Source: an uncultured Bacillales bacterium
GTDB lineage: Bacteria > Bacillota_I > Bacilli_A > RFN20 > CAG-826
Assembly: GCA_905197045.1 (NCBI GenBank)
Contig: CAJJXG010000002.1
Coordinates: 1,312 to 65,311 of the forward strand
Direction of reading: 5' to 3'
Length of the DNA stretch: 64,000 nt
A program made the position numbers and the translations under genes. The notes beneath the pieces are model-generated. The model saw only the letters and a list, made by a program, of their open reading frames with translations, ran no database searches and was not told the DNA's origin. Shown here one piece after another: positions 1,197 to 49,071 of this stretch. Each line of letters starts with the position of its first letter. Positions within the stretch are counted from its first letter, which is position 1.

Positions 1197-1202
1197 AATT
1201 TT

Positions 1203-1435: not shown

Positions 1436-1453
1436 CTTTTTCAACGCAAGAAA

Positions 1454-1482
1454 ATAATATAACTAATTAATTTTTTTGTAAA
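1454..1482 (-). promoter_or_regulatory. sigma-70-type promoter for the thrS leader
   Basis: The minus strand reads TTTACA-17 nt-TATTAT (plus coords 1482-1477 and 1459-1454), just upstream of the T-box leader. Confidence 0.5.
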
Positions 1483-2946: not shown

Positions 2947-2956
2947 ACTCTATTCC

Positions 2957-3916: not shown

Positions 3917-4068
3917 TAGGTATAACCTCCTAAACACTTAAAAACATTATAGTGAAAATTACTATCAATTTCTATATTTAAACAAGTTAAATATAGGTTA
4001 AGTTTTAATCTTTAAATTGCGAGAAAATTTCATAACTTAGTTAATACTTTTAATGTATAATTTGAGGG

Positions 4069-5286: not shown

Positions 5287-5300
5287 TATTTGGAGCAATT

Positions 5301-7556: not shown

Positions 7557-7558
7557 AC

Positions 7559-10153: not shown

Positions 10154-10155
10154 AA

Positions 10156-13100: not shown

Positions 13101-13239
13101 GGCCATACATTACACCTAAATCTGCAAGACCAAGTTCTTCATAGCCGCAGTCTTTGGCCATCTTAAAAAGATCCTTAAAAAGAATTCCACTTTTTAAGAA
13201 GGAATAACTAGAACGGATATGAAGAGGAATAAAGGCCAT
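10156..13239 (-). CDS. dnaE: DNA polymerase III alpha subunit (DnaE type)
   Basis: 1027 aa with an N-terminal PHP-like LHIRSSYSFL, LPDIDIDI, GLLKMDILGL-like FLKMDILGL, FNKSHA and a C-terminal OB region. Confidence 0.93.
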   Translation of the reverse strand: MAFIPLHIRSSYSFLKSGILFKDLFKMAKDCGYEELGLADLGVMYGLPEFASLAKDNNIFPILGMDVKCEKYFFSLFIQNETGYSNLSHITSLISKAKLEEKELSFAEILPFLEGLICVLPIGYNQIFKEVNNNLKDELLKLSKVFKHLFIGIEIYHKEEITHVNLIRDFALKYAYETIAFPYIRYLKKDDAIVINMLDALRENTTIEQNTIPTDSDFFFKTKEEILKFYTPLELKDCEKIKSLIEFKFDKKRGDLIHYTQKDDEETRQYFIDLIKEGAKKRNIDLNNQVYKRRLNYEYQTIRNLGYINYFLVVQDYVNYAKNVGIPVGPGRGSAAGSLISYCLGITDVDPIKYNLLFERFLNAKRNSLPDIDIDISDIRREEIIAYLINKYGFNKVARVCAFQTIAAKQAIRDTARVYGFPASFIGDLSKTIPNNFKDENAKNFSLDYAYENIPAFKKAVDSDVDYKFIFKQAHYIEGLPRQRGLHAAGIILNQDELSTHIPVDYENENELVTQYEKNYLEKQGFLKMDILGLSNLTVIDNCLKKIEKTRKINLKMEDIPYDTPEIFKLISEFKTMGIFQLDTSAAYNAIVNIRPSSFLDVVAAISLDRPGPMQFIPSFSRRKHGQERITYLSKTLEPILKETYGIIVYQEQIMQIAQAYASFSFSDADIFRKAISKKDRHELLEMKQNFIKGSVANGHNGVEANTLFEQILKFANYGFNKSHAVCYAMVACKEAYLKANYPIEFYCSILDQQYGSNDTKFSRYLAEIRSSNIKVYLPNINASTLRFEMWNNGLLMPLLGISNLPSKTIIAIIKEREEHGPFESFINFVIRMVYSEEKISDSILSKLIDAGAFDTLFANRKALKMSIPNAIQYASMVKSSEGKLIDTFGMEYKIPEAIDDPIERLDNECAALGVMISDSPLNHLPENLKNLKHAPINRLRNGETTVIVGIVRSIKNIVVKNGKDKGKPMAFVTIFDETGDVDTTFFSSLWAEIVSEIDINKIVVLSGRYEVRNNRGSFVVGSAKVV

Positions 13240-14240
13240 TATTTACCTGTAATAATTAATTGGTCTAAACGGTTAATAAAGGTGTCAAGTTCTGATAAAT
13301 CTTTAATTTGACATCCGCTTGCTTGAGCGTGTCCGCCACCTTTAAATTCGCTAGCGACACCATTAATAATATAATCTCTTGTTCTGATTGATATTCTAAA
13401 GCATGGTTCAGTAATATCTTCTGTAATCGAGCACCAAATATTAATGCCTTTGATATTAGAGAAAAGATTGACGTTTTCTTTCCCTCTTTCACTAGTCAAA
13501 CCAAGCTTTAATAAATCTTCGTTAGTTAAAACGTAATAAGCCACACCTTGAGGCGAAACTTTGTAATTATTTAAGATAAATTTGGTTACTTCTAAATCAG
13601 CAACATTCTTTTCATACATTAAAGCGTAAATGCTTGTGATATTAATTCCTTTATTGACTAAAGCAGAAGCAATTTCAAAAGTATGTGGAGTAGTTGAAGA
13701 ATACATAAATCTACCACTATCTCCAACAAGAGCAATATAAAGATATTTAGCACTTAAAGCACTTAATGAATAATCTTTAAATGATATAAGCATGTTAGCA
13801 ACAATTTCACTGGCAGCAGCTTTACTTGTATCTACAATTGAAAGATCAAATAACTTATCAGTTTCAGGGTGATGATCGATTTTAATTATATATTTGGCTT
13901 TTTCAAAGCGAGGATCAGCAATTCGTTTTTTATCACCTACATCAACAATGATTGCTAAAAAATCATCAAACCATGCGTCGCTAACTTTATCGGTTTCTGG
14001 AAAAAGTCCACGAGGAGTAAAAGTGACGTGGTTATCGCCTAAAATTTTGACGTCTTTATCAGGAAAATTTTCTTTAATCCATGTGGCTAAGCCAAATTGA
14101 GTACCTAAAGCATCAAAATCTGGCATGATATGACGAAAAACAGCAATTTTTTTGTATCTTTTAATTTGTCTTAAAACTAATCCGAATTCTTTTTTAAATT
14201 TGTCGTTTTCTAATTTAATGTAATCTATTTTTTTCTCCAT
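13239..14240 (-). CDS. nrnA: DHH/DHHA1 phosphoesterase (NrnA-type oligoribonuclease / pAp phosphatase)
   Basis: 333 aa with HIMPDFDALG, IDHHPE and GGGHAQASG. Its stop TAA overlaps the dnaE ATG by 1 nt. Confidence 0.8.
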   Translation of the reverse strand: MEKKIDYIKLENDKFKKEFGLVLRQIKRYKKIAVFRHIMPDFDALGTQFGLATWIKENFPDKDVKILGDNHVTFTPRGLFPETDKVSDAWFDDFLAIIVDVGDKKRIADPRFEKAKYIIKIDHHPETDKLFDLSIVDTSKAAASEIVANMLISFKDYSLSALSAKYLYIALVGDSGRFMYSSTTPHTFEIASALVNKGINITSIYALMYEKNVADLEVTKFILNNYKVSPQGVAYYVLTNEDLLKLGLTSERGKENVNLFSNIKGINIWCSITEDITEPCFRISIRTRDYIINGVASEFKGGGHAQASGCQIKDLSELDTFINRLDQLIITGK

Positions 14241-14253
14241 TTATTCTTCCTAT

Positions 14254-15453
14254 CTATTTCTTTAAGCAAATGTTGTAAGCATCACGTGCAATCATAACTT
14301 CCTCATCTGTAGGAATAACTGCAACTTTAATTTTGCTATCAGGAGTAGAAATTAATCCTTCTTTTCCTCCAACCATTTGTGCGTCTAAATCTTTGCTATA
14401 TCTAACTCCAAGAGCCTCAGCTATATTATCTAAAACTATTTCTCTATAATCAGGAGCATTTTCTCCAATACCTGCTGAGAAAATAATTAAATCGCATCCG
14501 CCAAGTCTAACATAATATTGGCCAATAAAATCAGCAACTCTTCTTGCCCATAATTTCATAGCAAGAATAGCGTGTTTATCGCCTTTTCTTGCGGCGTCTT
14601 CGACATCTCTTGAATCGTTTGAAATGCCACTAACTCCGAGTAAGCCACTCTTTTTATTCAATTCTTGGAAAACAGTTTCATTGTCTTTCCCACTCATTGC
14701 AACAATTTGATAATAAACACTTGGGTCCATATCGCCGGTTCTAGAATTCATCATGATTCCTCCAAGTGGAGTGAGTCCCATTGATGTAGCAACACATTTG
14801 CCATGTTTAGTAGCGGTAATAGAAGCGCCGCTTCCTAAATGACAAATAATCATTCGCTTATCTTTTGCTTCAGGGATAAATTTTTCGCCAACTTCACTTA
14901 AATATTTGTGAGAGGTTCCATGAGCGCCATATCTTCTAATTTGATATTTTTCAGTATATTCATATGGAATTGGGTATGTGTAATCTTCTTCTTCCATACT
15001 TTGGTGAAAGGCTGTATCAAAAACTGCAACTTGAGGTACATTTGGTAAAACTTTTTTGAAGGCCTCATAACCAGTAAGGTGAGCTTTATTATGAAGTGGA
15101 GCAAGTGGAATTAAACTTGCAACTTTTTGAACAGTATCTTCATTCCATAAAACAGAATGAGAGAAATAGCTCCCACCTTGAACAACTCTATGACCGACAG
15201 CCTTAATTTCGTCTAAATGAGAAATAATTTTCTTTTCAAGCATTCCTTTAACAACGATATCAACAGCATAACCATGATCTGGAACAGGTAATACTTTTGT
15301 TTCTTTGTTACCATCGAATTTAATGGTGAAAATTCCATCATCATGACCAATTCTTTCAACTATACCAGAGCATAAAACTTTTTCTTCTGGCATTTCATAT
15401 AATTTAAATTTAACACTGCTTGATCCGCAGTTAACAGACATTACTTTTGCCAT
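14254..15453 (-). CDS. ackA: acetate kinase
   Basis: 399 aa with VNCGSSSVKF, GHRVVQGG, RRYGAHGTSH and IICHLGSGASI. Confidence 0.95.
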   Translation of the reverse strand: MAKVMSVNCGSSSVKFKLYEMPEEKVLCSGIVERIGHDDGIFTIKFDGNKETKVLPVPDHGYAVDIVVKGMLEKKIISHLDEIKAVGHRVVQGGSYFSHSVLWNEDTVQKVASLIPLAPLHNKAHLTGYEAFKKVLPNVPQVAVFDTAFHQSMEEEDYTYPIPYEYTEKYQIRRYGAHGTSHKYLSEVGEKFIPEAKDKRMIICHLGSGASITATKHGKCVATSMGLTPLGGIMMNSRTGDMDPSVYYQIVAMSGKDNETVFQELNKKSGLLGVSGISNDSRDVEDAARKGDKHAILAMKLWARRVADFIGQYYVRLGGCDLIIFSAGIGENAPDYREIVLDNIAEALGVRYSKDLDAQMVGGKEGLISTPDSKIKVAVIPTDEEVMIARDAYNICLKK

Positions 15454-15811
15454 AGCAAATCTCCTTCAAAACAATCTTATTTATTATAGCCATTTTAAAG
15501 GCAAAATTTAATAAAATATCTAATCTAAAGTAGAAGTATTTTCTTAATATGATATTAAAGAAAGATGCCTTTAAAGTCATCATTAATGCTTTAAATCCTT
15601 ACTTGAAATATGTGTTTGCATTTATTATTCATGTTTTGGAATGACAAAAATACGAAAAAAACATTCTTTTCTAGTGGAAAAACATGGTTTTCTGAAAACT
15701 TTTCTGAAAATTTATGAAAATATTTATCATTTTCTTTTTATTTTTGATTTTTACTTTAAAAGTAAAAGGATTGTATCTATAATCAAATTATAGAGTTTAC
15801 GGAGGTAATTT

Positions 15812-17749
15812 ATGGCCTATGGCTTATTATTTGACTATTTAAATGGTCAATGTATTGAAGCTTATAAATATTTTGGTGCGCATTTTGAAACTAGAGAGGT
15901 AAAAGAAATAATTACTATACCTCTAAAAAAAGATCCTAGTAAAACAAAACATAGTTCAAGAAAAAAGCTAATTGAAGGGGTTGTCTTTAGACTTTATGCT
16001 CCATCCGCTAGTGATGTAAGCGTTATTGGAGATTGGAATGGTTGGGATCCAACAATTCACAAAATGAATAAAGTCGATGATTCTGGCGTTTTCGAGATTT
16101 TTATTGAAGGATTGCATAATTATTCTTTCTATAAATATCACTTTAGAAACGCAAGGGGTGAATATGTTGATAAAGCTGACCCATTTGCTTTTTTAAGTGA
16201 ATATAGACCAGGATCATGCTCTCGTTTATTTAACATTAATGGATTTATCTGGCACGATACTCCTTACCTTAAACAACGTTCTAGAAACTTCGATGCTCCA
16301 ATGAGCATTTATGAAATGCATTTAGGTAGTTGGAAGGGTAAGGTTGATGGCAGAAATTTATCTTATGAAGAAATTGCCGATTATTTAATTCCATATTTAA
16401 AAGAAACTGGCTTTACTCATATTGAAATTATGCCAATTACTCAATATCCATTTGATGGAAGTTGGGGTTATCAAGCTACAGGTTTTTATAGCGTAGATTC
16501 ACGTTATGGAAATCCTATGCAACTTATGAGTTTTGTTGATCGAATCCACCAAGCTGGAATTGGTGTTATCTTAGATTTTGCTCCAGTTCATTTTGCAACA
16601 GATCCTTGGGCTTTAAAGGATTTTGATGGAACTCCAATGTATGAATATGGAAATGAACACATGTATTCTCCATGGGGTAGCTGTCAATTCGATCTTGGAA
16701 AAGATCCTATTAGAAGCTTCTTAATGAGTGCGATGAGATACTTTATTGATTATTTCCATTTTGATGGAATTAGAGTTGATGCAGTAAGCAATATCGTCTA
16801 TTGGGACGGCAATAAGAACAATGGCGAAAATCATGGTGCCACTGAATTTATCAAGAGATTAAATGGTAAAATGCATTATGCTGACCAATCCATCATGATG
16901 ATTGCTGAAGATTCCACTGATTTTCCAGGAGTTACTAAGCCAATTGAATATGGAGGACTTGGATTCGATTATAAATGGGATCTTGGTTGGATGAACGATA
17001 CTTTAAAGTATTATGCTCTTGATCCAATTTATAAGAAATATGACCATAACAAATTAACTTTCTCTATGGCTTATTTCTTCAGTGAAAATTTCTTACTACC
17101 TTTATCACATGATGAAGTTGTTCACGGAAAAGGAACAATTTTAAATAAAATGTGGGGCGATTATGATCAAAAATTTGCTCTTGTAAGAAATTTATATACA
17201 TATCAATTTGCTCATCCTGGCAAAAAACTTAATTTCATGGGTAATGAATTAGCTTCATGGGATGAGTGGAATGAGACAAAATCTCTCCCTTGGGAACTTA
17301 AACGATTCCCAAAACACGATAGTGTTTCCCGTCTTGTAAGGGATTTAAATCTTATCTATCGAAAAGAAAGTGCAATGCATTATGAAGAATATAATCCAGT
17401 CCATTTTAACTGGCTTATGGTCGATAACAAAAATGATAGTGTCTTCGCTTTTGAAAGAAGAGTTGGTGACTCTCACTTAGTATTTATATTCAATATGACA
17501 CCAAATTATTACGAGCAATATGACATTGGTGTAACTCGTGAAGGAACCTATACTGAAATCTTTAATAGTGATAAAGATGTCTATGGTGGAAGTAATGCAT
17601 ACAATGGACTTGATGTAATGTCATATTATTGGGGTCCAGAAAACAAACCACACAAAATAACCGTTAAAATTGCTCCATTTGCTGCTATGATTTTCAAATA
17701 TGCTCATAAAAATGGAGAGGATTTAACCGAAGAAAAGGAAGGTAAATAA
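15812..17749 (+). CDS. glgB: 1,4-alpha-glucan branching enzyme
   Basis: 645 aa with GH13 motifs ILDFAPVHF, GIRVDAV, AEDST and LPLSHDEVVHGK. GGAGG RBS. Confidence 0.93.
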   Translation: MAYGLLFDYLNGQCIEAYKYFGAHFETREVKEIITIPLKKDPSKTKHSSRKKLIEGVVFRLYAPSASDVSVIGDWNGWDPTIHKMNKVDDSGVFEIFIEGLHNYSFYKYHFRNARGEYVDKADPFAFLSEYRPGSCSRLFNINGFIWHDTPYLKQRSRNFDAPMSIYEMHLGSWKGKVDGRNLSYEEIADYLIPYLKETGFTHIEIMPITQYPFDGSWGYQATGFYSVDSRYGNPMQLMSFVDRIHQAGIGVILDFAPVHFATDPWALKDFDGTPMYEYGNEHMYSPWGSCQFDLGKDPIRSFLMSAMRYFIDYFHFDGIRVDAVSNIVYWDGNKNNGENHGATEFIKRLNGKMHYADQSIMMIAEDSTDFPGVTKPIEYGGLGFDYKWDLGWMNDTLKYYALDPIYKKYDHNKLTFSMAYFFSENFLLPLSHDEVVHGKGTILNKMWGDYDQKFALVRNLYTYQFAHPGKKLNFMGNELASWDEWNETKSLPWELKRFPKHDSVSRLVRDLNLIYRKESAMHYEEYNPVHFNWLMVDNKNDSVFAFERRVGDSHLVFIFNMTPNYYEQYDIGVTREGTYTEIFNSDKDVYGGSNAYNGLDVMSYYWGPENKPHKITVKIAPFAAMIFKYAHKNGEDLTEEKEGK

Positions 17750-22104: not shown

Positions 22105-22180
<76 letters not shown>

Positions 22181-22198
22181 AATATTTTCAAAAAAATT

Positions 22199-22276
22199 TG
22201 GCGGACCAGACGAGAATCGAACTCGCGATCTCCACTGTGACAGAGTGGCATGTTAACCGCTACACCACTGGTCCGC
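22199..22276 (-). tRNA. tRNA-Asp (GUC)
   Basis: Reverse complement is GCGGACCAGTGGTGTAGCGGTTAACATGCCACTCTGTCACAGTGGAGATCGCGAGTTCGATTCTCGTCTGGTCCGCCA, with anticodon loop CTGTCAC. Confidence 0.93.
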
Positions 22277-25149: not shown

Positions 25150-25223
25150 GCATCATTAGTTCAATGGTAGAACGTTAGCTTCCCAAGCTGAATACGCGAG
25201 TTCGATTCTCGTATGGTGCTCCA
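25150..25223 (+). tRNA. tRNA-Gly (CCC)
   Basis: GCATCATTAGTTCAATGGTAGAACGTTAGCTTCCCAAGCTGAATACGCGAGTTCGATTCTCGTATGGTGCTCCA. The acceptor stem is GCATCAT/ATGGTGC, the anticodon loop is TTCCCAA and CCA is encoded. Confidence 0.9.
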
Positions 25224-26284: not shown

Positions 26285-28489
26285 ATGAAAAAAATAGCTA
26301 TTTTACTTGCTTCACTTGGATTAATGCTTACTGGATGTTCTTCTCAAGAAGCATCTTTAGATGGAACACAAACTCCTCCAAGTAATGAGGAAAATAATAA
26401 CGAAAATAATAGCAGTGAAAATAATAAAGAAGAAAACAATGAAAGTAATTCGGGCGAAAATATTGATGATGGGAATAGTGATAAAGAAAACGATTCATCT
26501 GAAGATGATAACCTAAATAACGACGAAAGCGATGATAGTGAAGGTAATTTAGGCGATAATACTGAAGAAGGAAACGACGATAAAGAAAACGATTCAGAAA
26601 ACAATGAAACGGAAGAAAATCCACAAGATTTAGAAACCGAAAGAACGTTTTCTTTACACTTAAATTACAATAAAGATGGCTATATAATTACTGATTATTT
26701 TGAGGAATTAGAAAATGTAGTCATTCCTAATACTTATAAAGATTTACCGATTGTTGAAATTGATAATGAAGTTTTTGAATATGATGAGTATTTAAAAAGC
26801 ATTTCAATACCAAACACAGTAAGAAAAATAGGAGTAGAAGCTTTTTATTATTGTGAAAATCTTGAAAGTGTAAGCATTGAAGATAATAGTCCATTAACGA
26901 AAATCCGCTATAGAGCTTTTTCTAATTGCTCCAATCTTAAAACAGTTGATTTAGGTCAAAATCCAGCTTTAACTACTATTGAAGCTCGTGCATTTTACGA
27001 ATGTAAGTCCTTATCTGCTTTTTATCTTTCAGATAAAATTCTTTATGTTGGAGATTACGCTTTTGCATTATGCGACAATTTAAAAATTTACTCTACTTTT
27101 GCTGAGTCTCCAACTAATTGGGGCGTTTATTGGCACATTACTGATACTACTTATAAAATAAACAGCGAGCGCGTTGTTTGGGGTTATGCTGGAATTTGTG
27201 ATATTTATAATAATTTAGAGTATTGTGTAAGATTTGATGAAGAAAAGAATCAATTTATTGTTATAACTGATTATCATGGAACAGCGACTGATCTTTATTT
27301 GCCAGAATCAATTGTTGTTAATGAAGAAGAACTACAGGTTAAGGAAATACTTCAAGACGCTTTTACTAGCGAAGATTTTTTAGATTATATTTTCATCCCA
27401 AAAACCATCACAACAATTAGACGTGAAGGGATTTACGCTCATAAAAAAATTTTCTGTGAAGTAGCGTCAACACCGGATGGTTGGACTCCTGGTTGGTGTA
27501 GTTCAAATCTTGTTATCTGGAATTCATATTTTGCCATTCACGGTTACTCAAATGGTTTTTATTATTGTGTTGTAAAAGATGAAAGTGAAAACCCATATAT
27601 TGTAATTACTGAATTTGGCGAAGAACGTGAAATAATTGTGCCTGGATCATTAAATATTAATGGAGAGGATATTCCAATTAAGGTAATTGATAAAGAAGCA
27701 TATAAGCCAAATGAAATAGTAGAAACTATTATTTTGCCTCATACAATTACTTCAATCAAAGGTTCGCCTTTCTGGGGATTTGACGCTTTAACTACACTTT
27801 TTTTGCCAAATAGCGTAACCGAACTAAAATATGGCACCTTTAATGATTGTGTTAATGCAACTATATATACCGATTATAAATCGAGACCAAGTAATTGGCC
27901 TTCAGGTATTTATGGTGAATGCTTAGTAGTATACAGTTCATTTTTTGGAGTACATGGAAATTACAATGGTTTTAATTATGCAGTTTGTATCGATGATAAT
28001 AATGAAAAATATATAAATATTGTTACGTATGTAGGTATGGATAATGAAGTTGTTATTCCTGAATCTATAAATGTAGATGGTGAAGAGATTCCAGTAAAAT
28101 TAATTTATGGTAATGCTTTTCGAGAAGGTAACAATGAAATAACGTCAGTTTCTATACCAAGCAGTGTGACTAAGATCGGCTATCAGGCCTTTGTGAATTG
28201 TAAAAATTTAAAAGAGGTTGTTGTTAAAGGTGATAGTAATTTAAATATAATTGATAACAATGCTTTTTCATATTGCTCATCATTAGAAACTATATTTATA
28301 CCATCATCTGTAACTACTTTTGGGGTTGGTGTTTTCGATGATTGCATAAATCTTACAATTTACTGCGAAATATCAGAAAGCGAATCTACACGGGAATCTT
28401 ATTGGAATAGTAAATGTGATGTTGTTTGGGATACAACTTACGAAGAATACTTAGAAGTTATTAATAACGATGAAAGTTTAACAAAATAA
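26285..28489 (+). CDS. surface lipoprotein with acidic low-complexity linker and BspA-type leucine-rich repeats (LRR_5)
   Basis: Signal peptide plus lipobox LMLTGCSS. An E/N/D/S-rich region of about 90 aa follows, then repeated IPNTVRKIGVEAFYYCENLESVSI / FSNCSNLKTVDL / IPSSVTKIGYQAFVNCKNLKEV motifs. Confidence 0.85.
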   Translation: MKKIAILLASLGLMLTGCSSQEASLDGTQTPPSNEENNNENNSSENNKEENNESNSGENIDDGNSDKENDSSEDDNLNNDESDDSEGNLGDNTEEGNDDKENDSENNETEENPQDLETERTFSLHLNYNKDGYIITDYFEELENVVIPNTYKDLPIVEIDNEVFEYDEYLKSISIPNTVRKIGVEAFYYCENLESVSIEDNSPLTKIRYRAFSNCSNLKTVDLGQNPALTTIEARAFYECKSLSAFYLSDKILYVGDYAFALCDNLKIYSTFAESPTNWGVYWHITDTTYKINSERVVWGYAGICDIYNNLEYCVRFDEEKNQFIVITDYHGTATDLYLPESIVVNEEELQVKEILQDAFTSEDFLDYIFIPKTITTIRREGIYAHKKIFCEVASTPDGWTPGWCSSNLVIWNSYFAIHGYSNGFYYCVVKDESENPYIVITEFGEEREIIVPGSLNINGEDIPIKVIDKEAYKPNEIVETIILPHTITSIKGSPFWGFDALTTLFLPNSVTELKYGTFNDCVNATIYTDYKSRPSNWPSGIYGECLVVYSSFFGVHGNYNGFNYAVCIDDNNEKYINIVTYVGMDNEVVIPESINVDGEEIPVKLIYGNAFREGNNEITSVSIPSSVTKIGYQAFVNCKNLKEVVVKGDSNLNIIDNNAFSYCSSLETIFIPSSVTTFGVGVFDDCINLTIYCEISESESTRESYWNSKCDVVWDTTYEEYLEVINNDESLTK

Positions 28490-29457: not shown

Positions 29458-29763
29458 TTTCGTTATCCTCCATTTATTTAATTATAAATCAACAAATTTA
29501 AGACAAGAGTTTTTTAAAGAATTAATTTCCTATTTTTAAGGTAGTTTGCTTCTAATTTTTCTAGAAAAGCCAATTAATATCCTTCTTGTTTTAGACCGAA
29601 TAATTGATTAAAAAAACATAATTTCTGTATCAAATTCTATAAAGAATATAAACACTAAATAAGCAAAAATATTATGAAATATTAAGATTTATTTACATTT
29701 TAATTGTTTCTTTAAAATTTAATAACTATATAATTTATATCATTAGAGAGTTGAAGGGAATTT

Positions 29764-32646
29764 ATGGATGAGCGTTTAAACAAAATTTATAAAGGAACAT
29801 CAAGACAGATATATTTAGAATTAGAAACAAGTGCCCATGGCTTAACTAGTGAAGAAGCTAAAAGGCGTTTAGAAACTTATGGACCTAATGAAATTGCTAA
29901 AAAAGAGAAAAACAACGTTTTAAAGTTATTTTTTAAAAACTTTGTTTCAATGCTAGCAATTTTACTTTGGGTTGCAGGAACTATTGCAATTATATCTTGC
30001 TTTATTGCTAGCGAATCTCCATCAAGTATTGGAGTTTTAAAAGATCCAGGAATGTTATATCTTGGTCTTGCTATTTATCTTGTAAACATCATTAATGGTG
30101 TTTTTTCTTTTGTGCAACAATTTAAAGCGAATAAATCAACAGAAGCTTTATCAAAAATGCTTCCGACCTATGCTCGAGTGATAAGAAATGGGGAAGAAAT
30201 TCAAATTGAAGCTAAAGATTTAGTAATCGGAGATGTTGTTGTTTTGCAAGAAGGGGATAAGATTTCAGCAGATGCTAGAATTATTAACTGTAATGACTTT
30301 ACCTGTAATCAATCAACATTAGATGGAGAAGCAACTCCAGCTAGAAAACAATATGAAGCTTTAAAGGAAGATCCAGAAAGTTCAATTAGAGCAAAAAATA
30401 TTGTTTATGCTGGAACAAGCGTTTCAACAGGAACTGCAAGATGTGTTGTTTTTGCAACTGGCATGAATACTGAATTTGGTAAGATTGCTTCTTTAACTCA
30501 ACAAATCGATGATAAAAAATCACCTCTTGAATTAGAAGTTGAAAAAATGACTAAAACTATTGCGATGATTGCTCTTTCAATTGGAGCGGTTGTTTTAGTT
30601 TTAGGAATTGTAATTAATGGATTTGCCACTAATCAATTTGCCTCACCAACCTTATATTTAAATCAATTTGTTACGGCTTTAGGTATGGTCGTGGCCTTTA
30701 TTCCAGAAGGTTTATCACCAACTGTTTCTTTATCTCTTGCTAAAGCCGTTCAACGTTTAGCAAAAGAAGGAGCGTTAATTAAAAATTTATCAAGTGCCGA
30801 AACTCTTGGTTCAACTAGTGTTATATGTTCTGATAAAACTGGTACTTTAACAAAAAATGAAATGACAGTTAAATATCTTTATTTAATTAACCGAGAATAT
30901 GTAGTAACCGGAGAAGGCTATGACATTAAAGGCGAAATTTTAGATCAAAATGGCAAAAGAGTTACTGCCATGGATAGCTTAGATTTAAAGCTTTTATTAA
31001 TGTGTGGCGCTTTATGTTCAAATGCTAAAATTGTTCTTGATGAAAATAAAAGATTTAAGGTTTTAGGTGATCCTACTGAAGCTTGTCTAGGAGTAGTAAG
31101 TGAAAAAGGCTTATTAAACGCACAAAATCAATTACGAATTACTCCACGAATTAGAGAATTAACTTTTGATTCAACTCGAAAAATGATGACAACTATTCAT
31201 CAACTTGAAGAGCAAATTGAAGGATCACAAAGAGTTTCGTTTACAAAAGGTTCTCCAAAAGAAGTTTTAGATAAATGTAAGTATATTTTTGAAAACGGGA
31301 AAGCTAGAAAAATAAATGAAGAAGACCGCAAAAAGATCATGGAAAACAATGATAATTTTGCCAAAAATGGTCTACGTGTTTTAGGCATGGCCTTCCGTTT
31401 ATTAAAAAAAGATGGAAAATTACCATTAGCTTTAAGTGCTTATACTCCAGATATTATTGAAACTGATATGTGCTTTTTAGGCTTAGAAGCAATGCAAGAT
31501 CCACCTAGAGAAGGTGTTAAAGAAGCGATTAAAGAATGTCATAAAGCTGGAATTAAAGTTATTATGATAACTGGTGATTATTCATTGACCGCTTTAGCAA
31601 TTGCTAAACACATTGGAATTGTAAAAGAAAAAAATCCACGTGTTATTTCTGGTCCAGAATTAAATAATATCGATGATGAAACGTTAAAAGAATATTTGAA
31701 GGATGAAATAATTTTTGCCCGAATGGCTCCTGATCAAAAATATCGTATTGTTTCTCTTCTTCAAGATTTAGGAGAAATTGTTGCAGTTACAGGGGATGGT
31801 GTAAATGATGCTCCAGCCTTAAAAAAAGCCAATATTGGTATTGCAATGGGTATAACTGGAACTGATGTAGCAAAAGAAGCAGCTGACATGATCTTAACCG
31901 ATGATAACTTTGCTTCAATTGTTAAAGCAGTAAAAGAAGGTCGTGCAATTTTTGATAACATTAAAAAGTTTATTACCTATATCTTTAACTCTAATATTCC
32001 AGAAGCCATCCCATTCCTTTTACCACTTTTAACAATTAATGCTCTTCCTCCAATGCTCACCATTTTAGAGGTTTTATTAATTGATATTGGTACAGATATG
32101 CTCCCAGCTCTTGCTTTAGGAAGTGAAAAACCAAGTGATAACATCATGGATCGCCCTCCAAGAAAAATTAATGAACATCTCATCACTAAAAAGTTATATG
32201 GTAAAGCTTTATATTATGGACTTCAAACTTCTATTTTATGTGTAGCGGCTTATTTTATCTTCCTAGCTTTCTATGCGTTAGATAATAATTTACCATTTAC
32301 TTTCTATAATCAAACAAATAATGAAGCAGTTTGGATGATGTCAACAACAGTTGTCCTTGCAAGTATTATTTTCTGTCAAATTGGTATAGTTTATAATTGT
32401 AGAAGTGATGAAACTAGTATCTTTAAATTAGGACTTACCTCAAATAAAGAAGTTCTTTATGGTATTGTTGCTGAAATAATCTTATTAATGATAGTAACTT
32501 ATGTTCCTTTCATTAATACGGAAGTCTTTGAAACAAATCAAATCTTAGATTATAAGATTTGGCTTATTATCTTTACATTCCCATTCATAGTTATTGGAAT
32601 TGATGAAACAAGAAAATATTTTATTAGAAGGAGAAAGGCAAAATGA
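29764..32646 (+). CDS. P-type cation-transporting ATPase, type II with Na,K-ATPase-like (P2C-like) membrane motifs
   Basis: 960 aa with the Cation_ATPase_N motif LTSEEAKRRLETYGPNEI. Core motifs are CSDKTGTLT, KGSPKE, DPPR, MITGD and TGDGVNDAPALKKA. TM4 is IPEGL, TM5 is YIFNSNIPEAIPFLL and TM6 is LIDIGTDMLPALALGSEKPSDNIMDRPPR. Confidence 0.9.
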   Translation: MDERLNKIYKGTSRQIYLELETSAHGLTSEEAKRRLETYGPNEIAKKEKNNVLKLFFKNFVSMLAILLWVAGTIAIISCFIASESPSSIGVLKDPGMLYLGLAIYLVNIINGVFSFVQQFKANKSTEALSKMLPTYARVIRNGEEIQIEAKDLVIGDVVVLQEGDKISADARIINCNDFTCNQSTLDGEATPARKQYEALKEDPESSIRAKNIVYAGTSVSTGTARCVVFATGMNTEFGKIASLTQQIDDKKSPLELEVEKMTKTIAMIALSIGAVVLVLGIVINGFATNQFASPTLYLNQFVTALGMVVAFIPEGLSPTVSLSLAKAVQRLAKEGALIKNLSSAETLGSTSVICSDKTGTLTKNEMTVKYLYLINREYVVTGEGYDIKGEILDQNGKRVTAMDSLDLKLLLMCGALCSNAKIVLDENKRFKVLGDPTEACLGVVSEKGLLNAQNQLRITPRIRELTFDSTRKMMTTIHQLEEQIEGSQRVSFTKGSPKEVLDKCKYIFENGKARKINEEDRKKIMENNDNFAKNGLRVLGMAFRLLKKDGKLPLALSAYTPDIIETDMCFLGLEAMQDPPREGVKEAIKECHKAGIKVIMITGDYSLTALAIAKHIGIVKEKNPRVISGPELNNIDDETLKEYLKDEIIFARMAPDQKYRIVSLLQDLGEIVAVTGDGVNDAPALKKANIGIAMGITGTDVAKEAADMILTDDNFASIVKAVKEGRAIFDNIKKFITYIFNSNIPEAIPFLLPLLTINALPPMLTILEVLLIDIGTDMLPALALGSEKPSDNIMDRPPRKINEHLITKKLYGKALYYGLQTSILCVAAYFIFLAFYALDNNLPFTFYNQTNNEAVWMMSTTVVLASIIFCQIGIVYNCRSDETSIFKLGLTSNKEVLYGIVAEIILLMIVTYVPFINTEVFETNQILDYKIWLIIFTFPFIVIGIDETRKYFIRRRKAK

Positions 32647-33293
32647 AAATATTAATAATTGGTTGTGGTAAACTTGGTGCCGGACTTGCTATTGAATTAT
32701 ATAAAAGAGGACATAGTGTTAATGTAATCGATAAAGATGAAGAAAGTTTTTATCGCTTAGGAGCTGATTTTAATGGTCTTACAGTGCTAGGAAATGGATA
32801 TGATAAAGACACTTTAGAAGAAGCTGAAATTGAATATTGTGATGCTTTAGTTTGTGCAACTGGGAATGACGATATTAATGCAGTGGCTGCTAAAATTGGA
32901 AAAGACAAATACTTTGTAAAATACGTTATTGCTCGTTTATATAACCCTAAAAAAGGTAAAGTATTTGAAGCACAAGGCATAAAAACAATCTCAACTACAG
33001 GTTATAGCATTAACCGTGCAATTGAACTTTTATCTTTTAATATGATGGATAGTGTTCAACTTCTTGGAGCTGATGCAAGTAGTGAAATCGTTCGTATTAT
33101 GGCAACTCCTTCGATTGATGGATTAACTTTAAAAGAGTTAGAAAACGAAAAAGATTTTAAATTAATTGCAATTGTTCGAGATGGTTCATCTTTTATTCCG
33201 CAAGCTGAAGATATAGTAATGACTCACGACATCTTATATTTTGTAACTAAAGTTGATGCTAAACGTCGTCTTAAGATGTTTCTTGGAATTTAA
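32643..33293 (+). CDS. RCK-domain protein (TrkA/KtrA-like, TrkA_N + TrkA_C)
   Basis: 216 aa with MKILIIGCGKLGAGLA...VNVIDKD (Rossmann GxGxxG). Its ATG overlaps the ATPase stop (ATGA). Confidence 0.85.
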   Translation: MKILIIGCGKLGAGLAIELYKRGHSVNVIDKDEESFYRLGADFNGLTVLGNGYDKDTLEEAEIEYCDALVCATGNDDINAVAAKIGKDKYFVKYVIARLYNPKKGKVFEAQGIKTISTTGYSINRAIELLSFNMMDSVQLLGADASSEIVRIMATPSIDGLTLKELENEKDFKLIAIVRDGSSFIPQAEDIVMTHDILYFVTKVDAKRRLKMFLGI

Positions 33294-33305
33294 GGGAGGC
33301 TAAAT

Positions 33306-33977
33306 ATGTACGTTGTTATTATTGGTGGTGGACAAATCGGTTCTTACATGGCCGACCTATTAAAAAGAAACAAACTCGATTTTGTAGTTATCGATTCAGT
33401 TAGATCAAATATTGAAAAACTACTTAAAAAATTTGGCGAAGAACATGTTTGTTTAGGAGATGGCACAGATCCTAATGTTTTAGCAAGTGTTAAAATTGAA
33501 ACAGCCGATGTTGTTGCTTGTGTTACCGGAAGAGATGAAACCAATCTTGTTGCTTCAACTGTTGCTAAATTTGAGTTTAATTGTTCACGAGTTGTAGCTA
33601 GAGTTAATAACCCAAATAATGCTTGGCTATTTAATGTTGGGATGGGGGTTGATGCAGCTATTAACCAAGCTGATATCATTGGACACATTGTTGTTGAAGA
33701 AATGTCGATGAAAAACTTTATGACTTTGATGAAACTATCAAAAGGCGATCATTCAATTATTCAACTTGTGGCTAGTGAAAATTCTGAGGCTGCTGGTAAA
33801 AAGATTAAAGAACTTAAACTACCAAAATCTGTTTTACTTATTGCAATTTATCATGGTGATGATTTTGTTGTTCCAAATGGAGAAACAACTATTTTCCCAG
33901 GGGACAGAATCATGCTTTTCTCTGGTGAAGGCATATATCATGAATTAGTAAGAATTTTTTCTGGAAATGTAAATTAA
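33306..33977 (+). CDS. RCK-domain protein (TrkA/KtrA-like), second copy
   Basis: 223 aa with MYVVIIGGGQIGSYMA...VVIDS, a C-terminal TrkA_C-like segment and a GGGAGG RBS. Confidence 0.85.
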   Translation: MYVVIIGGGQIGSYMADLLKRNKLDFVVIDSVRSNIEKLLKKFGEEHVCLGDGTDPNVLASVKIETADVVACVTGRDETNLVASTVAKFEFNCSRVVARVNNPNNAWLFNVGMGVDAAINQADIIGHIVVEEMSMKNFMTLMKLSKGDHSIIQLVASENSEAAGKKIKELKLPKSVLLIAIYHGDDFVVPNGETTIFPGDRIMLFSGEGIYHELVRIFSGNVN

Positions 33978-33995
33978 AAAATACGAAAAAAGCAA

Positions 33996-34040
33996 ATAAG
34001 CCTGCAAAATAATTGAGTTTTGCAGGCTTATTTATTTTTT
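33996..34040 (+). terminator. rho-independent terminator after the ATPase/RCK operon
   Basis: ATAAGCCTGCAAAA-taattgag-TTTTGCAGGCTTAT followed by TTATTTTTT. Confidence 0.85.
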
Positions 34041-34192: not shown

Positions 34193-36526
34193 ATGAAAAG
34201 AAGAATTTCAATAATAATGTCAGCGTTAGCTCTTTTTTCACTTGTTGGTTGTAGTGGAGCAAACGGTAAAGATGGAGTTAACGGCAAAGATGGCGTAGAT
34301 GGGAAAGATGGGATTTCTATTGTCTCAATAGAATTAACAGATACTGAAGGATTGGAAGATACTTACACAATTACATATTCTAATAATTCAACATCGACTT
34401 TTGTTGTTACCAATGGAGCAGATGGAGCTCAAGGTATTCAAGGTGAACCTGGTAAAGATGGACATACTCCAATAGTTGAAATTAATGAAAACGGATATTG
34501 GGTAATTGACGGCGAAGTTACTGAAATTTTAGCTAAAGGCGAAAAAGGTGACAAAGGTGATGAAGGCGCTCCGGGAAAAGATGGAACTTCTTGCTTTAAT
34601 GGTAGCGGAAAACCTTTAGTTACTCTTGGGAATGATGGTGATTCTTATATTGATACTGATACTTAGGACTTTTATGTAAAAGTTGAAGGAGTTTGGATTA
34701 AAAAAGGAAATATAAAAGGTGAAGATGGAAAATTTATTGAAAAAATTGAATATAAATCAAGCAATGGGAACGTTGATATTTATACAATTACTTTTTCTGA
34801 TGGATCAACTATTGATTTTGAAATAACTAATAAAGAGACGATAGAAGAGACTTTTGATATTACTTTTGATCCTAATGGAGGAGTGTTACCTTCACATTTA
34901 GTGGAAAGTGATTATCAAGATCTAAAAGAAGGCGCTTTTGTACGTTTACCAACTCCTTATAGAGAAGGATTTAACTTTGATGGCTGGTATATGAGCAAAA
35001 CTTATCGAGCTACAAAGGTAAATGAATCTACTTATGTTTATGATAATCTCAATCTTGTGGCTAGATGGATTGAAGACGTTCCTGCCGCTGATATTGGAGA
35101 TAGTGATTGTGAAACTATCATCAAATACTTGTATTATCTTATAAGACCAGAAAATATAACTAACGAAATTAATAATGAACTACAAAGTTACTTAGATAGA
35201 ATTTGGTTTGAAAGTGTTAGAAATGATTTAGTTGATGTTTATAACGAAGCCTTAGAATGGCTATATACACTCGATGCCGATTTAAGTATTTTTGATGAAA
35301 AATTTCAGTATATGATTGAAGTGGCTGAACCAGTTAAAGACTTGTTATTAGGATACAATTTAGAAACTACTTATTATTCAATTATTAGTGAGACAATGAC
35401 TGGAAACTTAACAAACAAACAATTAATAGATCTTCAAGATAAAATTAGTGATGTAGTTTTTCAAGCCGAAAGAATTCTAAATAGAAATTATGAAAATTAT
35501 AAAAACAATTGGGAGAACTTACCACTCACATTAGATAAAACTTATGATTTCATAAATACTATTTTAAGTAATTTGGATTCATCCACGCCTACAGGTGCAA
35601 ATTATTTAGAAGAGTTTAAAAACGATTTTGAAGTAATTAAAGAAGAGTACATTAATGCAGGCCCTAGCATGATTACTTATACTGAAACAGTAGAAGGCAA
35701 ACTTGATGCTTTATTTTATGAAATAAGTGTTAAGATTTTAAATTTGGTCTCTGATGAATCGAATCGAGGTTTAATTGTTGATAAGTTCAATGAATATGCA
35801 TCGCTAATTAAACAAGAATTAATTGCTAAATACGAATTAGATGATTATTGTGAATTTTTAAATTCATATGATAGAGATTTAGATCAAATTTCAAATGAAA
35901 TAGCTTTTTCTAGCGATGCTGCATCCATAAAAACGTATATTGTAAAGGCAATTTTTACTTTTTGTGAATATTATATATGCTTACCTGCTACCTATGTAAT
36001 GAAATTAAATCTTAATATAAATACATATTCTTTATTTGCGCCAATTGAAACTGAAATTTTGGAAGTTGGATATTTAATGCCAATAGATATTACTGATATA
36101 GTAAATTTAATTTCAGAAAAAGGATTTGTTTTTAAGAGATTCGTGGTATCATCACCACTTGTTGGTGGAGAAGTTGAAAGTTCAGAAGACTTTATATTCA
36201 GTGTGGATGATAAGAAATATTTTAGGATTAACTATATAGCTCCTTTCAATACTTATCCAGAATTTGATGTTACATTTGATATTGAAATAGTAGATGTTGA
36301 TTTAGCTCGACAAGCAGTAAATGATTATTTCGAAAATACGATTGTCAATGAGTTAAAAAATAATTGCTTAGAAAACGAGATTGACTTCACAGTTTTTGAA
36401 ATAGAGATAAACGATGTTAAAAGCGAAATTAGCGCTCTTCAACTTGGAAGTAATTTTAACGATTATCTCTCTGCATTATCTAGATTAAAAGCTGCATATA
36501 ATAGAGAGTTAACTGCAGCCAAATAG
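34193..36526 (+). pseudogene. collagen-like surface lipoprotein, single frame interrupted by an in-frame TAG at 34664-34666
   Basis: Lipobox LVGCSG, then GxY repeats GANGKDGVNGKDGVDGKDG and GAQGIQGEPGKDG. The ORFs 34193..34666 and 34883..36526 are in the same frame. The 72 codons between them are open and read DFYVKVEGVWIKKGNIKGEDG...FDPNGGVLP...GFNFDGWY (Listeria-Bacteroides repeat-like). Confidence 0.7.
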
Positions 36527-41920: not shown

Positions 41921-41996
41921 TGGTGATCCGCCGGAGACTCGAACTCCGGACCCACTGATTAAGAGTCAGTTGCTCTACCAACTGAGCTAGCGGACC
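41921..41996 (-). tRNA. tRNA-Lys (CUU)
   Basis: Reverse complement is GGTCCGCTAGCTCAGTTGGTAGAGCAACTGACTCTTAATCAGTGGGTCCGGAGTTCGAGTCTCCGGCGGATCACCA, with anticodon loop CTCTTAA. Confidence 0.93.
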
Positions 41997-47005: not shown

Positions 47006-48403
47006 ATGGGGCTAGTTAAAGCATCTAAATTTGAAATTAAACCGATAGCATTTATTTGCTTAGCGTTTATGGTTGTAATCCTACTGGGTTCGCTTTTTTT
47101 ATGGGCACCATTTTCTTTAAATGAAGGAATAAGCGTTGATTATATTGATGCTTTATTTACCTCAACTTCGGCAACTTGTGTTACGGGTTTAGTTTCTTTA
47201 CCAAATGGATCAGTTGCTGATACTTATAATATTTTTGGGCGATTTGTAGTAGCTCTTTTAATCCAAATTGGTGGATTAGGAGCGGCAACTTTAGCGATGG
47301 CTTTTATTTTAATAATTTCTTCTCGCTTAACAATGAATCAACAAACCTTAGTAAAAGAAAGCTGGAATATTTCTTCTTTTAAAGGTCTTAAAAAAATCTT
47401 TTTATTAAATCTTTTAATTACTTTTATTGCAGAAATTGTCGGAGCTTTTCTTTTATTTTTTGATCTTTATTTTTTACATAACGATGTTATTAAAGGGATC
47501 GATGAAGCTTTTGGACACGCCTTCTTTTTATCAGTAAGTGCCTTTAATAATGCAGGATTTGATATTTTTGGAAATACTTCATTAATTGCTTTTTCAGATG
47601 ATGTATTTATGAATTTAATCATCTCTTTACTTATTGTTTTTGGTGGTTTAGGTTATTTAGTTATTATTGATATCTGCTCTAAAAAGTTTCATTTTAAAAA
47701 GATGACTTTACATACAAAAGTTGTTATTTTTATGACTTTGTTATTAATTGTTGGTGGAACAATTACTATTTATTTAAGTGAAAACGTGCCTCATTTTATA
47801 AATAGCGCCGTGCCTTCTGGAATGACTTTTTTAGAGTCTTTCTTTTTATCTGTTTCAACAAGAACGGCTGGATTTACAACTTATAATTTATACGATGCGC
47901 AGATTTGTTCAATTCTATTAATGAATGTACTTATGTTTATTGGAGCTTCTCCAGGAGGTACTGGAGGTGGTGTTAAAACAACAACCATCTTTGCTCTTTT
48001 TGCTCGCATTAGAAGTGGAATTGATGGAAAAGCACCTCATGCTTTTAGAAGAAGCATCAATAAAGAAACCATTCAAAAAGCATTTACCTTATTTTTCCTT
48101 TCAGTATTATTCCTTCTTTTCTTTATCATTTTAATTTTTGCTTTTGAAGGAAAAGAAATTGAAGGAAATGGTAATATTTATTCATCAAATGATTATGTTT
48201 TTGATGCTTTTAGTGCTTTTGCAACCGTTGGACTTTCAACTGGAGTTACTCCATTTTTCTCAGTTGGTAGTAAACTTTGTTTAATTTTATTAATGTATAT
48301 TGGCCGAATTGGTCCAATGTCAGTTTCATTATCTTTATTTAAAACAAAACATAGTAATAACATTACTTGGAAATATGTAGATGATTCATTACCTATTGGA
48401 TGA
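47006..48403 (+). CDS. TrkH/KtrB-family potassium transporter membrane subunit
   Basis: 465 aa, multi-TM, with selectivity-filter-like segments TCVTGL, NAGFD, RTAGF and STGVT. Confidence 0.88.
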   Translation: MGLVKASKFEIKPIAFICLAFMVVILLGSLFLWAPFSLNEGISVDYIDALFTSTSATCVTGLVSLPNGSVADTYNIFGRFVVALLIQIGGLGAATLAMAFILIISSRLTMNQQTLVKESWNISSFKGLKKIFLLNLLITFIAEIVGAFLLFFDLYFLHNDVIKGIDEAFGHAFFLSVSAFNNAGFDIFGNTSLIAFSDDVFMNLIISLLIVFGGLGYLVIIDICSKKFHFKKMTLHTKVVIFMTLLLIVGGTITIYLSENVPHFINSAVPSGMTFLESFFLSVSTRTAGFTTYNLYDAQICSILLMNVLMFIGASPGGTGGGVKTTTIFALFARIRSGIDGKAPHAFRRSINKETIQKAFTLFFLSVLFLLFFIILIFAFEGKEIEGNGNIYSSNDYVFDAFSAFATVGLSTGVTPFFSVGSKLCLILLMYIGRIGPMSVSLSLFKTKHSNNITWKYVDDSLPIG

Positions 48404-48417
48404 GGAAGGATATTTTT

Positions 48418-49071
48418 ATGGCAAAAAATGCAGGAACTATTGGTATTATTGGACTTGGAAGATTTGGTTATTCTTTAGCTATTGAACTTGCTTCTAAAGG
48501 CAAAAGCATTATTTGTATTGATAAAGATGAAAAGAAAGTTAAAGAAATGCTTGATTACACAGATTATGCCTATGTTAGTGAAGATTTAACTAAAGAAACC
48601 TTAGAAGAGTTAGGTTTTAAAGAATGCGAAACCATTGTTGTTTGTATTGGTGAAAAAGTTGATGCTTCAATTTTAACAACCTTAAATGCCATTTCTTTAG
48701 GAGTTAAAAAAGTTATTGCTAAAGCGGGAAATGAAGAACAAGGGCAAGTCCTTGAACGTCTTGGAGCAGAAGTTATCTATCCTGATAAAGATAGTGCTGA
48801 TCGTCTTGCTAAAAAAATACTTTCTAATAATATTCTTGATTTTATTTCTCTTAATGAAAATATTGAAATTGTTGAAATAACTATTCCTAAAAGATATGTT
48901 GGGATAAAACTTGCTGATACTGATATTAGAAAAAGATTTAACCTTAATGTTATTGCAATTGAAAGAGATGAAAATATCGATATTAACGTTTCACCTTCTC
49001 ACGTATTTGAAGAAAAAGATGCTATCGTTGTTGTTGGTAATACCGATAGTATCGCTGAATTTGAAAAATAG
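48418..49071 (+). CDS. TrkA/KtrA RCK-domain regulatory subunit
   Basis: IGIIGLGRFGYSLA...ICIDKD is a Rossmann fold. I moved the start to ATG 48418, which follows the GAGGAAGG RBS; the track start at 48400 overlaps the trkH stop. Confidence 0.85.
   Translation: MAKNAGTIGIIGLGRFGYSLAIELASKGKSIICIDKDEKKVKEMLDYTDYAYVSEDLTKETLEELGFKECETIVVCIGEKVDASILTTLNAISLGVKKVIAKAGNEEQGQVLERLGAEVIYPDKDSADRLAKKILSNNILDFISLNENIEIVEITIPKRYVGIKLADTDIRKRFNLNVIAIERDENIDINVSPSHVFEEKDAIVVVGNTDSIAEFEK

Follow-up and report, generated by a model that had tools for sequence, protein, structure and literature searches.

A Na,K-ATPase-like pump and two TrkA-type RCK proteins encoded together in a conserved prokaryotic operon

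The window analysed here is a stretch of 64,000 nucleotides (nt) of contig CAJJXG010000002.1 from an uncultured Bacillales bacterium (assembly GCA_905197045.1), with a G+C content of about 30%. At positions 29764-33977 it contains three consecutive genes on the forward strand, which encode a P2-type ATPase (hereafter the pump) and two small RCK proteins, designated R1 and R2 (Table 1). The locus had been singled out in an earlier reading of the DNA (the original prediction), and its three open reading frames (ORFs) were recovered on the same strand and at the same coordinates, the two adjacent RCK proteins of about 220 residues having 216 and 223 amino acids. Long ORFs of the window are intact under translation table 11. 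An alternative code with TGA read as tryptophan was considered and ruled out, given these intact ORFs and the finding that table 4 adds only three residues to the pump.

The TGA stop codon of the pump gene is embedded in the ATG of R1 (AAAATGAAAA), and this overlap, read in the original prediction as well, indicates that translation of the two genes is coupled. The strong terminator reported earlier downstream of R2 is also present, and the hairpin scores as a terminator on both strands. With a stop/start overlap, a spacer containing a ribosome-binding site and one terminator, the pump, R1 and R2 genes form a single operon as far as can be read from the DNA. It stands alone, because its neighbours are a divergent short-chain dehydrogenase gene on the 5' side and a small collagen-repeat lipoprotein gene on the 3' side. 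The leader of the pump gene matched no Rfam family at the gathering score or at E<=1, and a consensus promoter scan returned no site 5' of the pump ATG. A candidate promoter (TTGTTT-17 nt-TATAAT) was seen in this leader by eye only.

Table 1. Features of the pump-R1-R2 locus and conserved ion-site motifs in transmembrane segments (TM) of the pump clade, with equivalent Na,K-ATPase residues
Feature	Position	Strand	Description
P2-type ATPase gene (pump)	29764-32646	+	960 amino acids; from the ORF list
R1 (RCK protein)	32643-33293	+	216 amino acids; TrkA_N and weaker TrkA_C; GxGxxG, conserved Asp30
R2 (RCK protein)	33306-33977	+	223 amino acids; TrkA_N and TrkA_C; GGGQIG, conserved TGxDExN and ARxNxP
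ATGA overlap of pump stop and R1 start	32643-32646	+	Sequence read directly
R1-R2 spacer	33294-33305	+	12 nt with GGGAGG ribosome-binding site for R2; sequence read
Intrinsic terminator hairpin	33994-34033	+	17-bp stem, 5 G-C pairs, 6-nt loop, then T-run
AT-rich leader/promoter region of pump	29458-29763	+	306 nt; GAAGGGA ribosome-binding site just 5' of ATG
TM4 clade motif			VA(F/N)(V/I)PEGLL; Glu327
TM5 clade motif			Y..xSNxPE; Tyr771, Ser775, Asn776, Glu779
TM6 clade motif			IDLGTDMxPAL; Asp804, Thr807, Asp808
TM8 conserved Gln in clade			Gln923
TM9 conserved Glu in clade			Glu954

The pump has the Pfam domains Cation_ATPase_N, E1-E2_ATPase, Cation_ATPase, Hydrolase and Cation_ATPase_C, and is thus a complete P2-type ATPase. 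In a phmmer search of the PDB its best matches were Na,K-ATPase alpha subunits (519 bits), followed by H,K-ATPase (about 500), LMCA1 (476), SERCA (431) and SPCA (410). For comparison, a genuine LMCA1-type relative (L084) scores 696 bits against LMCA1. Among NCBIfam models the IIC family TIGR01106 scored highest (618 bits), ahead of the PMR1-type (590), SERCA (535), PMCA (442), ENA-type (422), H+ (388), Mg2+ (353) and KdpB (109) models; all these scores are under the curated cut-offs, for example 946 bits for TIGR01106, 798 for the PMR1-type model TIGR01522, 703 for the SERCA model TIGR01116 and 528 for KdpB. Overall, the pump shares 37-38% of its residues with Na,K-ATPase, 36% with LMCA1 and 33% with SERCA, and over TM5-TM6 the identity is 46-47% to Na,K-ATPase versus 41-42% to the Ca2+ pumps. 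It had been claimed that the membrane motifs align far better to Na,K/H,K-ATPases than to SERCA-type pumps. The TM5 and TM6 strings quoted in support are found in the translation and align to Na,K-ATPase as described, and the claim holds for the diagnostic residues but is too strong in terms of percent identity. An AlphaFold2 model of the pump (predicted local distance difference test score 76) contains the expected helices; a Foldseek search with it placed E1 states of Na,K-ATPase at the top with those of SERCA nearly equal, so that fold similarity does not discriminate between the two.

The ion-site residues are more informative. The K+-site motifs of the window pump are AFIPEGL in TM4, NSNIPE in TM5 and IDIGTDM in TM6, and these are invariant or nearly so throughout a clade of prokaryotic pumps described below. 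Equivalents of the K+-coordinating residues Ser775, Asn776, Glu779, Asp804 and Asp808 are therefore present, as first proposed, and are kept across the clade. All P2A references, as well as Ca2+-type relatives that lack RCK genes, instead have SSNVGE and NLVTDGLPA, and the aligned P2A pumps also have a Glu in TM8. The P2A motifs SxN(V/L)GE and N(L/I)xxD(G/S)xPA are unmatched in the window pump, which has no equivalent of Glu908 of SERCA site I. Na+ site III is partly retained: the equivalents of Tyr771, Gln923 and Glu954 are kept, Thr774 is replaced by Asn, and Asp926 is lost, with Ile at this position of the window pump and Met, Ala, Gly or Asn in other clade members. The catalytic motifs ICSDKTGTLT (containing DKTGT), KGSPE, DPPR, TGD and GDGVNDAPALK are intact.

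The phylogenetic position of the pump was analysed on a neighbour-joining tree (200 bootstraps) of 86 prokaryotic relatives and five references, namely human alpha-3 and shark Na,K-ATPase, LMCA1, SPCA1 (these rebuilt from PDB alignments) and SERCA1a (identical to 1IWO). The window pump falls inside a prokaryotic clade of 52 sequences (197/200), and this clade, together with the Na,K-ATPases and two proteobacterial pumps (L053 and L054), is split from all P2A-type pumps, comprising LMCA1, SERCA, SPCA and their relatives, in 199 of the 200 replicates. Clustering with Ca2+ or Mg2+ pumps, which would have contradicted the original prediction, was thus seen neither in this tree nor in the PDB and NCBIfam rankings. 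The closest named genome is the metagenome-assembled genome (MAG) 'Candidatus Onthovivens merdipullorum' of uncultured Bacilli, with 78% pump identity. Because Asp926 is absent and the score is under the TIGR01106 cut-off, the pump is not regarded as a bona fide Na,K-ATPase; its sequence makes it a 'P2C-like' prokaryotic pump related to the Na,K/H,K-ATPases, an assignment made on signature residues and phylogeny and not on bulk identity.

The two pumps outside the clade, L053 from a Sulfurimonas MAG and L054 from a Hydrogenovibrio MAG, have no RCK genes nearby. Their TM4-TM6 motifs (IVANVPEGLL, SSNVPEI and IDLG(S/T)D) are even nearer to those of animal Na,K-ATPase, and their placement relative to the latter is unsettled in the neighbour-joining tree.

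The top PDB match of R1 is Thermotoga maritima TM1088A (E = 6.5e-24), while R2 best matches the second half of TrkA of the Vibrio and E. coli type (E about 1e-28) and TM1088B (5e-27). On the NCBIfam TrkA model of 446 residues, R1 aligns to positions 1-217 and R2 to positions 231-445. Because they are placed on successive halves of this model, R1 and R2 together look like a TrkA split in two. Among homologues of R1, Gly7, Gly9, Gly12 and Asp30 are invariant; in the R2 family the three glycines at the same positions are kept in at least 90% of sequences, and position 30 is Asp, or Glu in several. The GxGxxG motif and the ribose-binding acidic residue are therefore kept in both proteins, and both are predicted to bind nucleotides.

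The association of the pump with the RCK pair is widely conserved. In four homologues with 78, 63, 53 and 53% pump identity, the pump gene is followed in each case by two genes with TrkA_N and TrkA_C domains, in quite different neighbourhoods. A wider scan of one genome per species returned 80 loci, and hidden Markov models (HMMs) of R1 and R2 built from the first examples revealed 38 non-redundant modules with the order pump, R1, R2 and unrelated flanking genes. The pair was present next to 38 of the 47 evaluable clade genes and to none of the 32 outside the clade (Fisher p = 2.7e-14). The hosts include Bacillota (uncultured Bacilli, Lachnospiraceae and other Clostridia, Erysipelotrichaceae, Bacillus marasmi and Thermoanaerobacterium), Actinomycetota (Collinsella, Olsenella and Thermoleophilia), several Chloroflexota, Geomonas, a Rokuibacteriota MAG and the archaeon Methanospirillum. 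Spacing is tight: the 4-nt overlap of pump stop and R1 start occurs in 15 of the 38 modules, and the median gap between R1 and R2 is about 10 nt. Synteny in relatives, whose absence would have counted against the original prediction, is thus borne out across several phyla and an archaeon, with the same gene order. No third conserved gene was found in the modules examined.

Pairwise distances are correlated between pump and R1 (r = 0.74), pump and R2 (0.59) and R1 and R2 (0.74), with Mantel p = 0.001 for the first two and the third given without a permutation test; this fits inheritance as a unit and is no proof of contact. Two loci contain tandem modules in which each pump has its own R1-R2 pair. 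The copies in L021 (707-9147) are recent, with 83% identity between the pumps and 94% between the RCK proteins, and those in L034 (761-9146) are old, with 54, 46 and 47% identity for pump, R1 and R2, respectively. A search based on R1 revealed further pump-linked modules in L088 and L090, at 37% and 30% R1 identity; the latter module (2152-6313; CP163518.1, an 11-Mb genome record) has 4-nt overlaps at both junctions. It lies among genes for a universal stress protein, CBS, nitroreductase, Rv1733c-like and hydrogenase-maturation proteins, a setting reminiscent of a hypoxia/dormancy regulon.

R1-like pairs are not confined to pumps and occur in at least three contexts. An R1 relative with 36% identity (P0123) adjoins two TrkH genes, and in locus L089 (2704-5966) and one Joint Genome Institute contig an R1-R2-like pair lies beside an APC-superfamily permease (AA_permease_2, about 600 amino acids) with no pump or TrkH gene beside it. 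Because such pairs adjoin TrkH, permease or pump genes, the two-subunit ring looks like a portable regulatory module, and their distribution suggests that it may serve as a regulator of several transporter classes. The tree of the R1 family is poorly resolved, with permease-linked pairs nested among pump-linked R1 proteins, and it does not decide whether the latter are monophyletic.

RCK rings ordinarily act on K+ channels and transporters, and the genomic surroundings of the modules were searched for such a partner. No TrkH-like ORF was found within 5 kb of any module by single-sequence phmmer, a search that a very divergent SKT subunit could escape. The window does encode a TrkH/KtrB-type protein of 465 residues (47006-48403), and its stop codon overlaps by 4 nt the start of its own RCK gene (48400-49071). 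The product of the latter, with 223 residues and a GLGRFG motif, is KtrA-like and is 32% identical to R1 and 16% to R2. The separate TrkH-RCK pair at 47006-49071, noted in the original prediction, is therefore real. The accompanying caveat that R1 and R2 might serve a Trk/Ktr subunit encoded elsewhere was answered in part: no candidate was found within 5 kb of the modules, and the TrkH of the window is already provided for. The pump is the favoured partner of the RCK pair because no TrkH gene lies within this distance, the window TrkH has its own RCK protein, tandem modules each keep a pair, and pump and R1 appear translationally coupled.

Taken together, it is very probable that the pump, R1 and R2 constitute one functional unit. 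The proposed reading is that they would encode a single transport system, in which the pump most likely uses ATP to move K+ inward, in exchange for Na+ or H+. With two K+-like sites per cycle, it would be more like the non-gastric H,K-ATPase than the 3Na/2K pump. R1 and R2 would assemble into a hetero-octameric ring like that of TM1088A:B, bind adenine or nicotinamide nucleotides and dock on the cytoplasmic face of the pump. Nucleotide occupancy (ATP/ADP, NAD(H) or, in Bacillota, possibly cyclic di-AMP, c-di-AMP) would then switch the pump on or off according to the energy or K+ status of the cell, in the way that RCK rings control TrkH and KtrB channels. That the ring forms, that it touches the pump, which ion is carried and which way it moves are points that we infer. 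That K+ is a transported ion of the pump is, on balance, probable. Direct binding and gating of the P-type ATPase by a TrkA-type hetero-oligomeric RCK ring is proposed more tentatively, at slightly less than even chances, and the whole statement, in which an ATP-driven pump transports or countertransports K+ and is controlled by a hetero-oligomeric RCK ring that senses nucleotides, with coupling and ion as deduced here, is about evenly balanced between right and wrong.

Elsewhere in the window, a stand-alone DHH/DHHA1 protein of 333 amino acids is encoded at 13239-14240 on the reverse strand, beside the gene for DNA polymerase III alpha. NrnA nanoRNases and c-di-AMP/pApA phosphodiesterases are proteins of this kind, and the present one would be relevant to the operon if the RCK proteins sense c-di-AMP.

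Several other explanations of the locus were weighed. RCK proteins are overwhelmingly linked to K+ transport, and this general association speaks for K+ over the view that an RCK-regulated pump extrudes Na+/H+ or moves Ca2+ or Mg2+ with no K+ uptake, its RCK pair reporting energy charge or another ligand. That view draws on the sub-threshold scores for every curated model, the small distance between the PMR1-type Ca2+ and IIC scores, the nearly equal identities to LMCA1 and Na,K-ATPase, the failure of the fold search to separate Na,K-ATPase from SERCA, and the missing Asp926. It seems improbable, if still to be taken seriously, in the face of the TM5 SNxPE and TM6 IDxGTDMxPA motifs, which are signatures of K+-countertransporting P2C pumps unlike their P2A counterparts, and of the lack of a Glu908 equivalent. 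R1 and R2 might also be an ordinary two-subunit TrkA ring that gates TrkH/KtrB or another K+ channel or transporter elsewhere, being merely co-transcribed with the pump because both would serve K+ homeostasis. The nearest solved homologues, TM1088A and TM1088B, do work with a TrkH homologue, TM1089 (PMC4380455); the R1 relative adjoining two TrkH genes and the clade members with no RCK genes nearby point the same way. Such simple co-expression is nevertheless distinctly unlikely, given the absence of TrkH-like ORFs within 5 kb of the 38 modules, the KtrA-like partner already coupled to the window TrkH, the retention of a separate pair by each tandem pump, and the inheritance and apparent transfer of the module as a unit across phyla, with frequent pump-R1 overlap.

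Very unlikely indeed is a tripartite, Kdp-like machine, in which pump and RCK ring would also draw in a further membrane subunit, channel-like or not, from another locus and the pump alone would not be the ion path. The pump keeps the full set of canonical ion-site residues in TM4-6, TM8 and TM9, which KdpB does not, and the modules have no third conserved gene. The idea is prompted by KdpFABC, which couples a P-type ATPase to an SKT channel subunit (PMC6255902), and by the R1-R2-like pairs beside APC-family permeases, which make the ring look portable.

Other results weigh against the proposal of an RCK-regulated, K+-transporting P2C-like pump itself. On the phylogenetic side, the direct sister relation between the clade and Na,K-ATPase was found in only 86 of the 200 bootstraps, and the tree had no P2B, P2D or P3 references, so that only the lower HMM scores speak against those placements. 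Ion specificity is read from residues only, and the acidic positions concerned could equally accommodate a divalent cation or protons. The A-domain motif TGES is degenerate in the subclade of the window pump: it is DGEA in the window pump (residues 187-190; 30322-30333), with Glu kept and Thr and Ser replaced, and likewise in the three closest relatives (L001, L003 and L007). The rest of the clade has TGES, NGES, SGEA, TGEA or TGDA at this site, and the catalytic Glu is kept in all members but one. In KdpB the Ser of the TGES motif is a regulatory phosphorylation site.

As to the partnership, RCK genes are missing from the 5 kb around nine pumps of the clade: three cyanobacterial pumps, one of Methanobacterium type, those of Bifidobacterium tibiigranuli, Streptococcus ratti and Companilactobacillus, and one each from a Chloroflexi bacterium and an actinomycete. 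Either, therefore, the pump has no strict need of the pair, or these genomes carry the RCK genes at another site. No residue of the pump, sought as a docking site, separates RCK-linked from RCK-less members at thresholds of at least 85% versus at most 30%. The top 150 R1-family representatives are 88-471 amino acids long and include no fusion to a pump, and a chimeric query of the pump C-terminus and R1 returned no protein covering both halves, which is a weak negative as all candidates were shorter than 770 residues. RCK rings dock on channel assemblies with two-fold or four-fold symmetry, and a P-type ATPase offers no obvious symmetric platform of this kind. Regulation of the pump by R1 and R2 is something that we infer from genome context only.

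A few other features of the window may be recorded. Two predicted lipoproteins border the operon region: one of 734 amino acids (26285-28489) has a long low-complexity linker rich in Asn, Glu, Asp and Ser, followed by BspA-type-like leucine-rich repeats recognised by eye, and the other, of 157 amino acids (34193-34666), contains GKDG collagen-like repeats with a weak Pfam Collagen match. The GC skew is negative over positions 1-16000 and positive thereafter, with the sign change at about 15450-15810, where gene orientation also switches between acetate kinase on the reverse strand and a glycogen branching enzyme and phosphorylase pair on the forward strand. No dnaA gene was seen, and the change may be only a strand switch. 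A T-box leader at 1241-1453 on the reverse strand scored 97.8 bits, over the gathering score, and four tRNA genes are present at 22108-22274, 25150-25220 and 41924-41996.

If the proposed RCK-regulated K+ pump is real, it would be the first primary ion pump known under the control of an RCK ring, and such rings would be known to act on a primary pump as well as on channels and secondary transporters. How a ring with symmetry is coupled to a P-type ATPase would then become a question for structural work. For prokaryotic relatives of the sodium pump, which have so far been seen as sequences only, the RCK partnership provides a concrete hypothesis, nucleotide-controlled K+ transport; these enigmatic Na,K-ATPase-like pumps would be ligand-gated, ATP-driven K+ importers. 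Among the hosts of the module are many gut anaerobes, organisms that have to retain K+ with no respiratory chain to rely on. Cultured members include Hungateiclostridium/Clostridium thermosuccinogenes, Anaerocolumna, Breznakia, Bacillus marasmi, Collinsella and Geomonas.

The pump resembles the alpha subunit of Na,K/H,K-ATPases in its top PDB and NCBIfam matches, in lying on the same side of the split from P2A pumps (199/200), and in domain architecture and fold, and it has equivalents of Glu327, Tyr771, Ser775, Asn776, Glu779, Asp804, Thr807, Asp808, Gln923 and Glu954. It differs in overall identity (37-38%), in a score under the TIGR01106 cut-off and in the replacement of Asp926. Its TM7-TM8 ectodomain loop, which in Na,K-ATPase binds the beta subunit, is short, and the operon, to which this comparison is confined with no search for beta subunits, has two cytoplasmic RCK proteins instead of a beta or FXYD gene. 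Automated annotation already names many relatives 'sodium/potassium-transporting ATPase subunit alpha' or 'potassium/sodium efflux P-type ATPase', so the pump type alone is not new. M. tuberculosis CtpF was considered as a characterised member and set aside; its TM5 and TM6 motifs are probably of another type.

Na,K-ATPase-like genes have been recognised in methanogens by phylogenomics (Palmgren 2023, as summarised in the review PMC10654040), and this review lists 'P2C ATPases: what do they do in archaea?' among the questions still to be answered. The methanogen pumps are likewise prokaryotic, P2C-type and functionally uncharacterised; according to that review they have all three Na+ sites, whereas the window clade lacks Asp926. 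TrkA or RCK partners are not mentioned in this review, and open-access papers and preprints yielded no account of an RCK pair together with a P-type pump.

Among RCK proteins, the closest parallel is the T. maritima TM1088A:TM1088B complex (PDB 3L4B), a hetero-octameric, AMP-binding ring resembling that of TrkA (PMC4380455). It is likewise encoded by two adjacent, tightly spaced RCK genes, with R1 the counterpart of TM1088A and R2 that of TM1088B. The two systems differ in that TM1088A has no RCK_C domain and R1 has one, and in that the membrane partner of the former is the TrkH homologue TM1089 (PMC4380455), whereas the membrane protein adjacent to R1 and R2 is a P-type ATPase. In mycobacteria two further TrkA proteins with an implied role in K+ uptake, CeoB and CeoC, likewise form a jointly encoded pair (PMC13163235). 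They share with R1 and R2 the pairing of TrkA-like genes and differ in that their operon lacks a P-type ATPase. The ceoBC genes presumably lie beside a permease, in which case they would resemble the R1-like pairs with APC permeases.

As proposed, the module would resemble KdpFABC in being an ATP-driven P-type K+ system composed of modules also used in Trk/Ktr. In KdpFABC, however, a P1A ATPase works with an SKT channel subunit and there is no RCK ring, whereas the module described here combines a P2 ATPase with a putative RCK ring and lacks an SKT subunit. The pump is not a KdpB, as shown by the score for that model (109 versus 528 bits) and the unrelated neighbouring genes, and it is not part of a Trk/Ktr system in the usual sense, since no SKT membrane subunit is encoded with R1 and R2 within 5 kb. 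If the proposed regulation holds, the module would represent a missing third pairing, P-type ATPase with RCK, beside SKT with P-type ATPase in Kdp and SKT with RCK in Trk/Ktr. Two-subunit TrkA rings acting with TrkH were known before; what appears to be new, going by open-access papers and preprints, is the widely conserved association of an RCK pair with a P-type pump.

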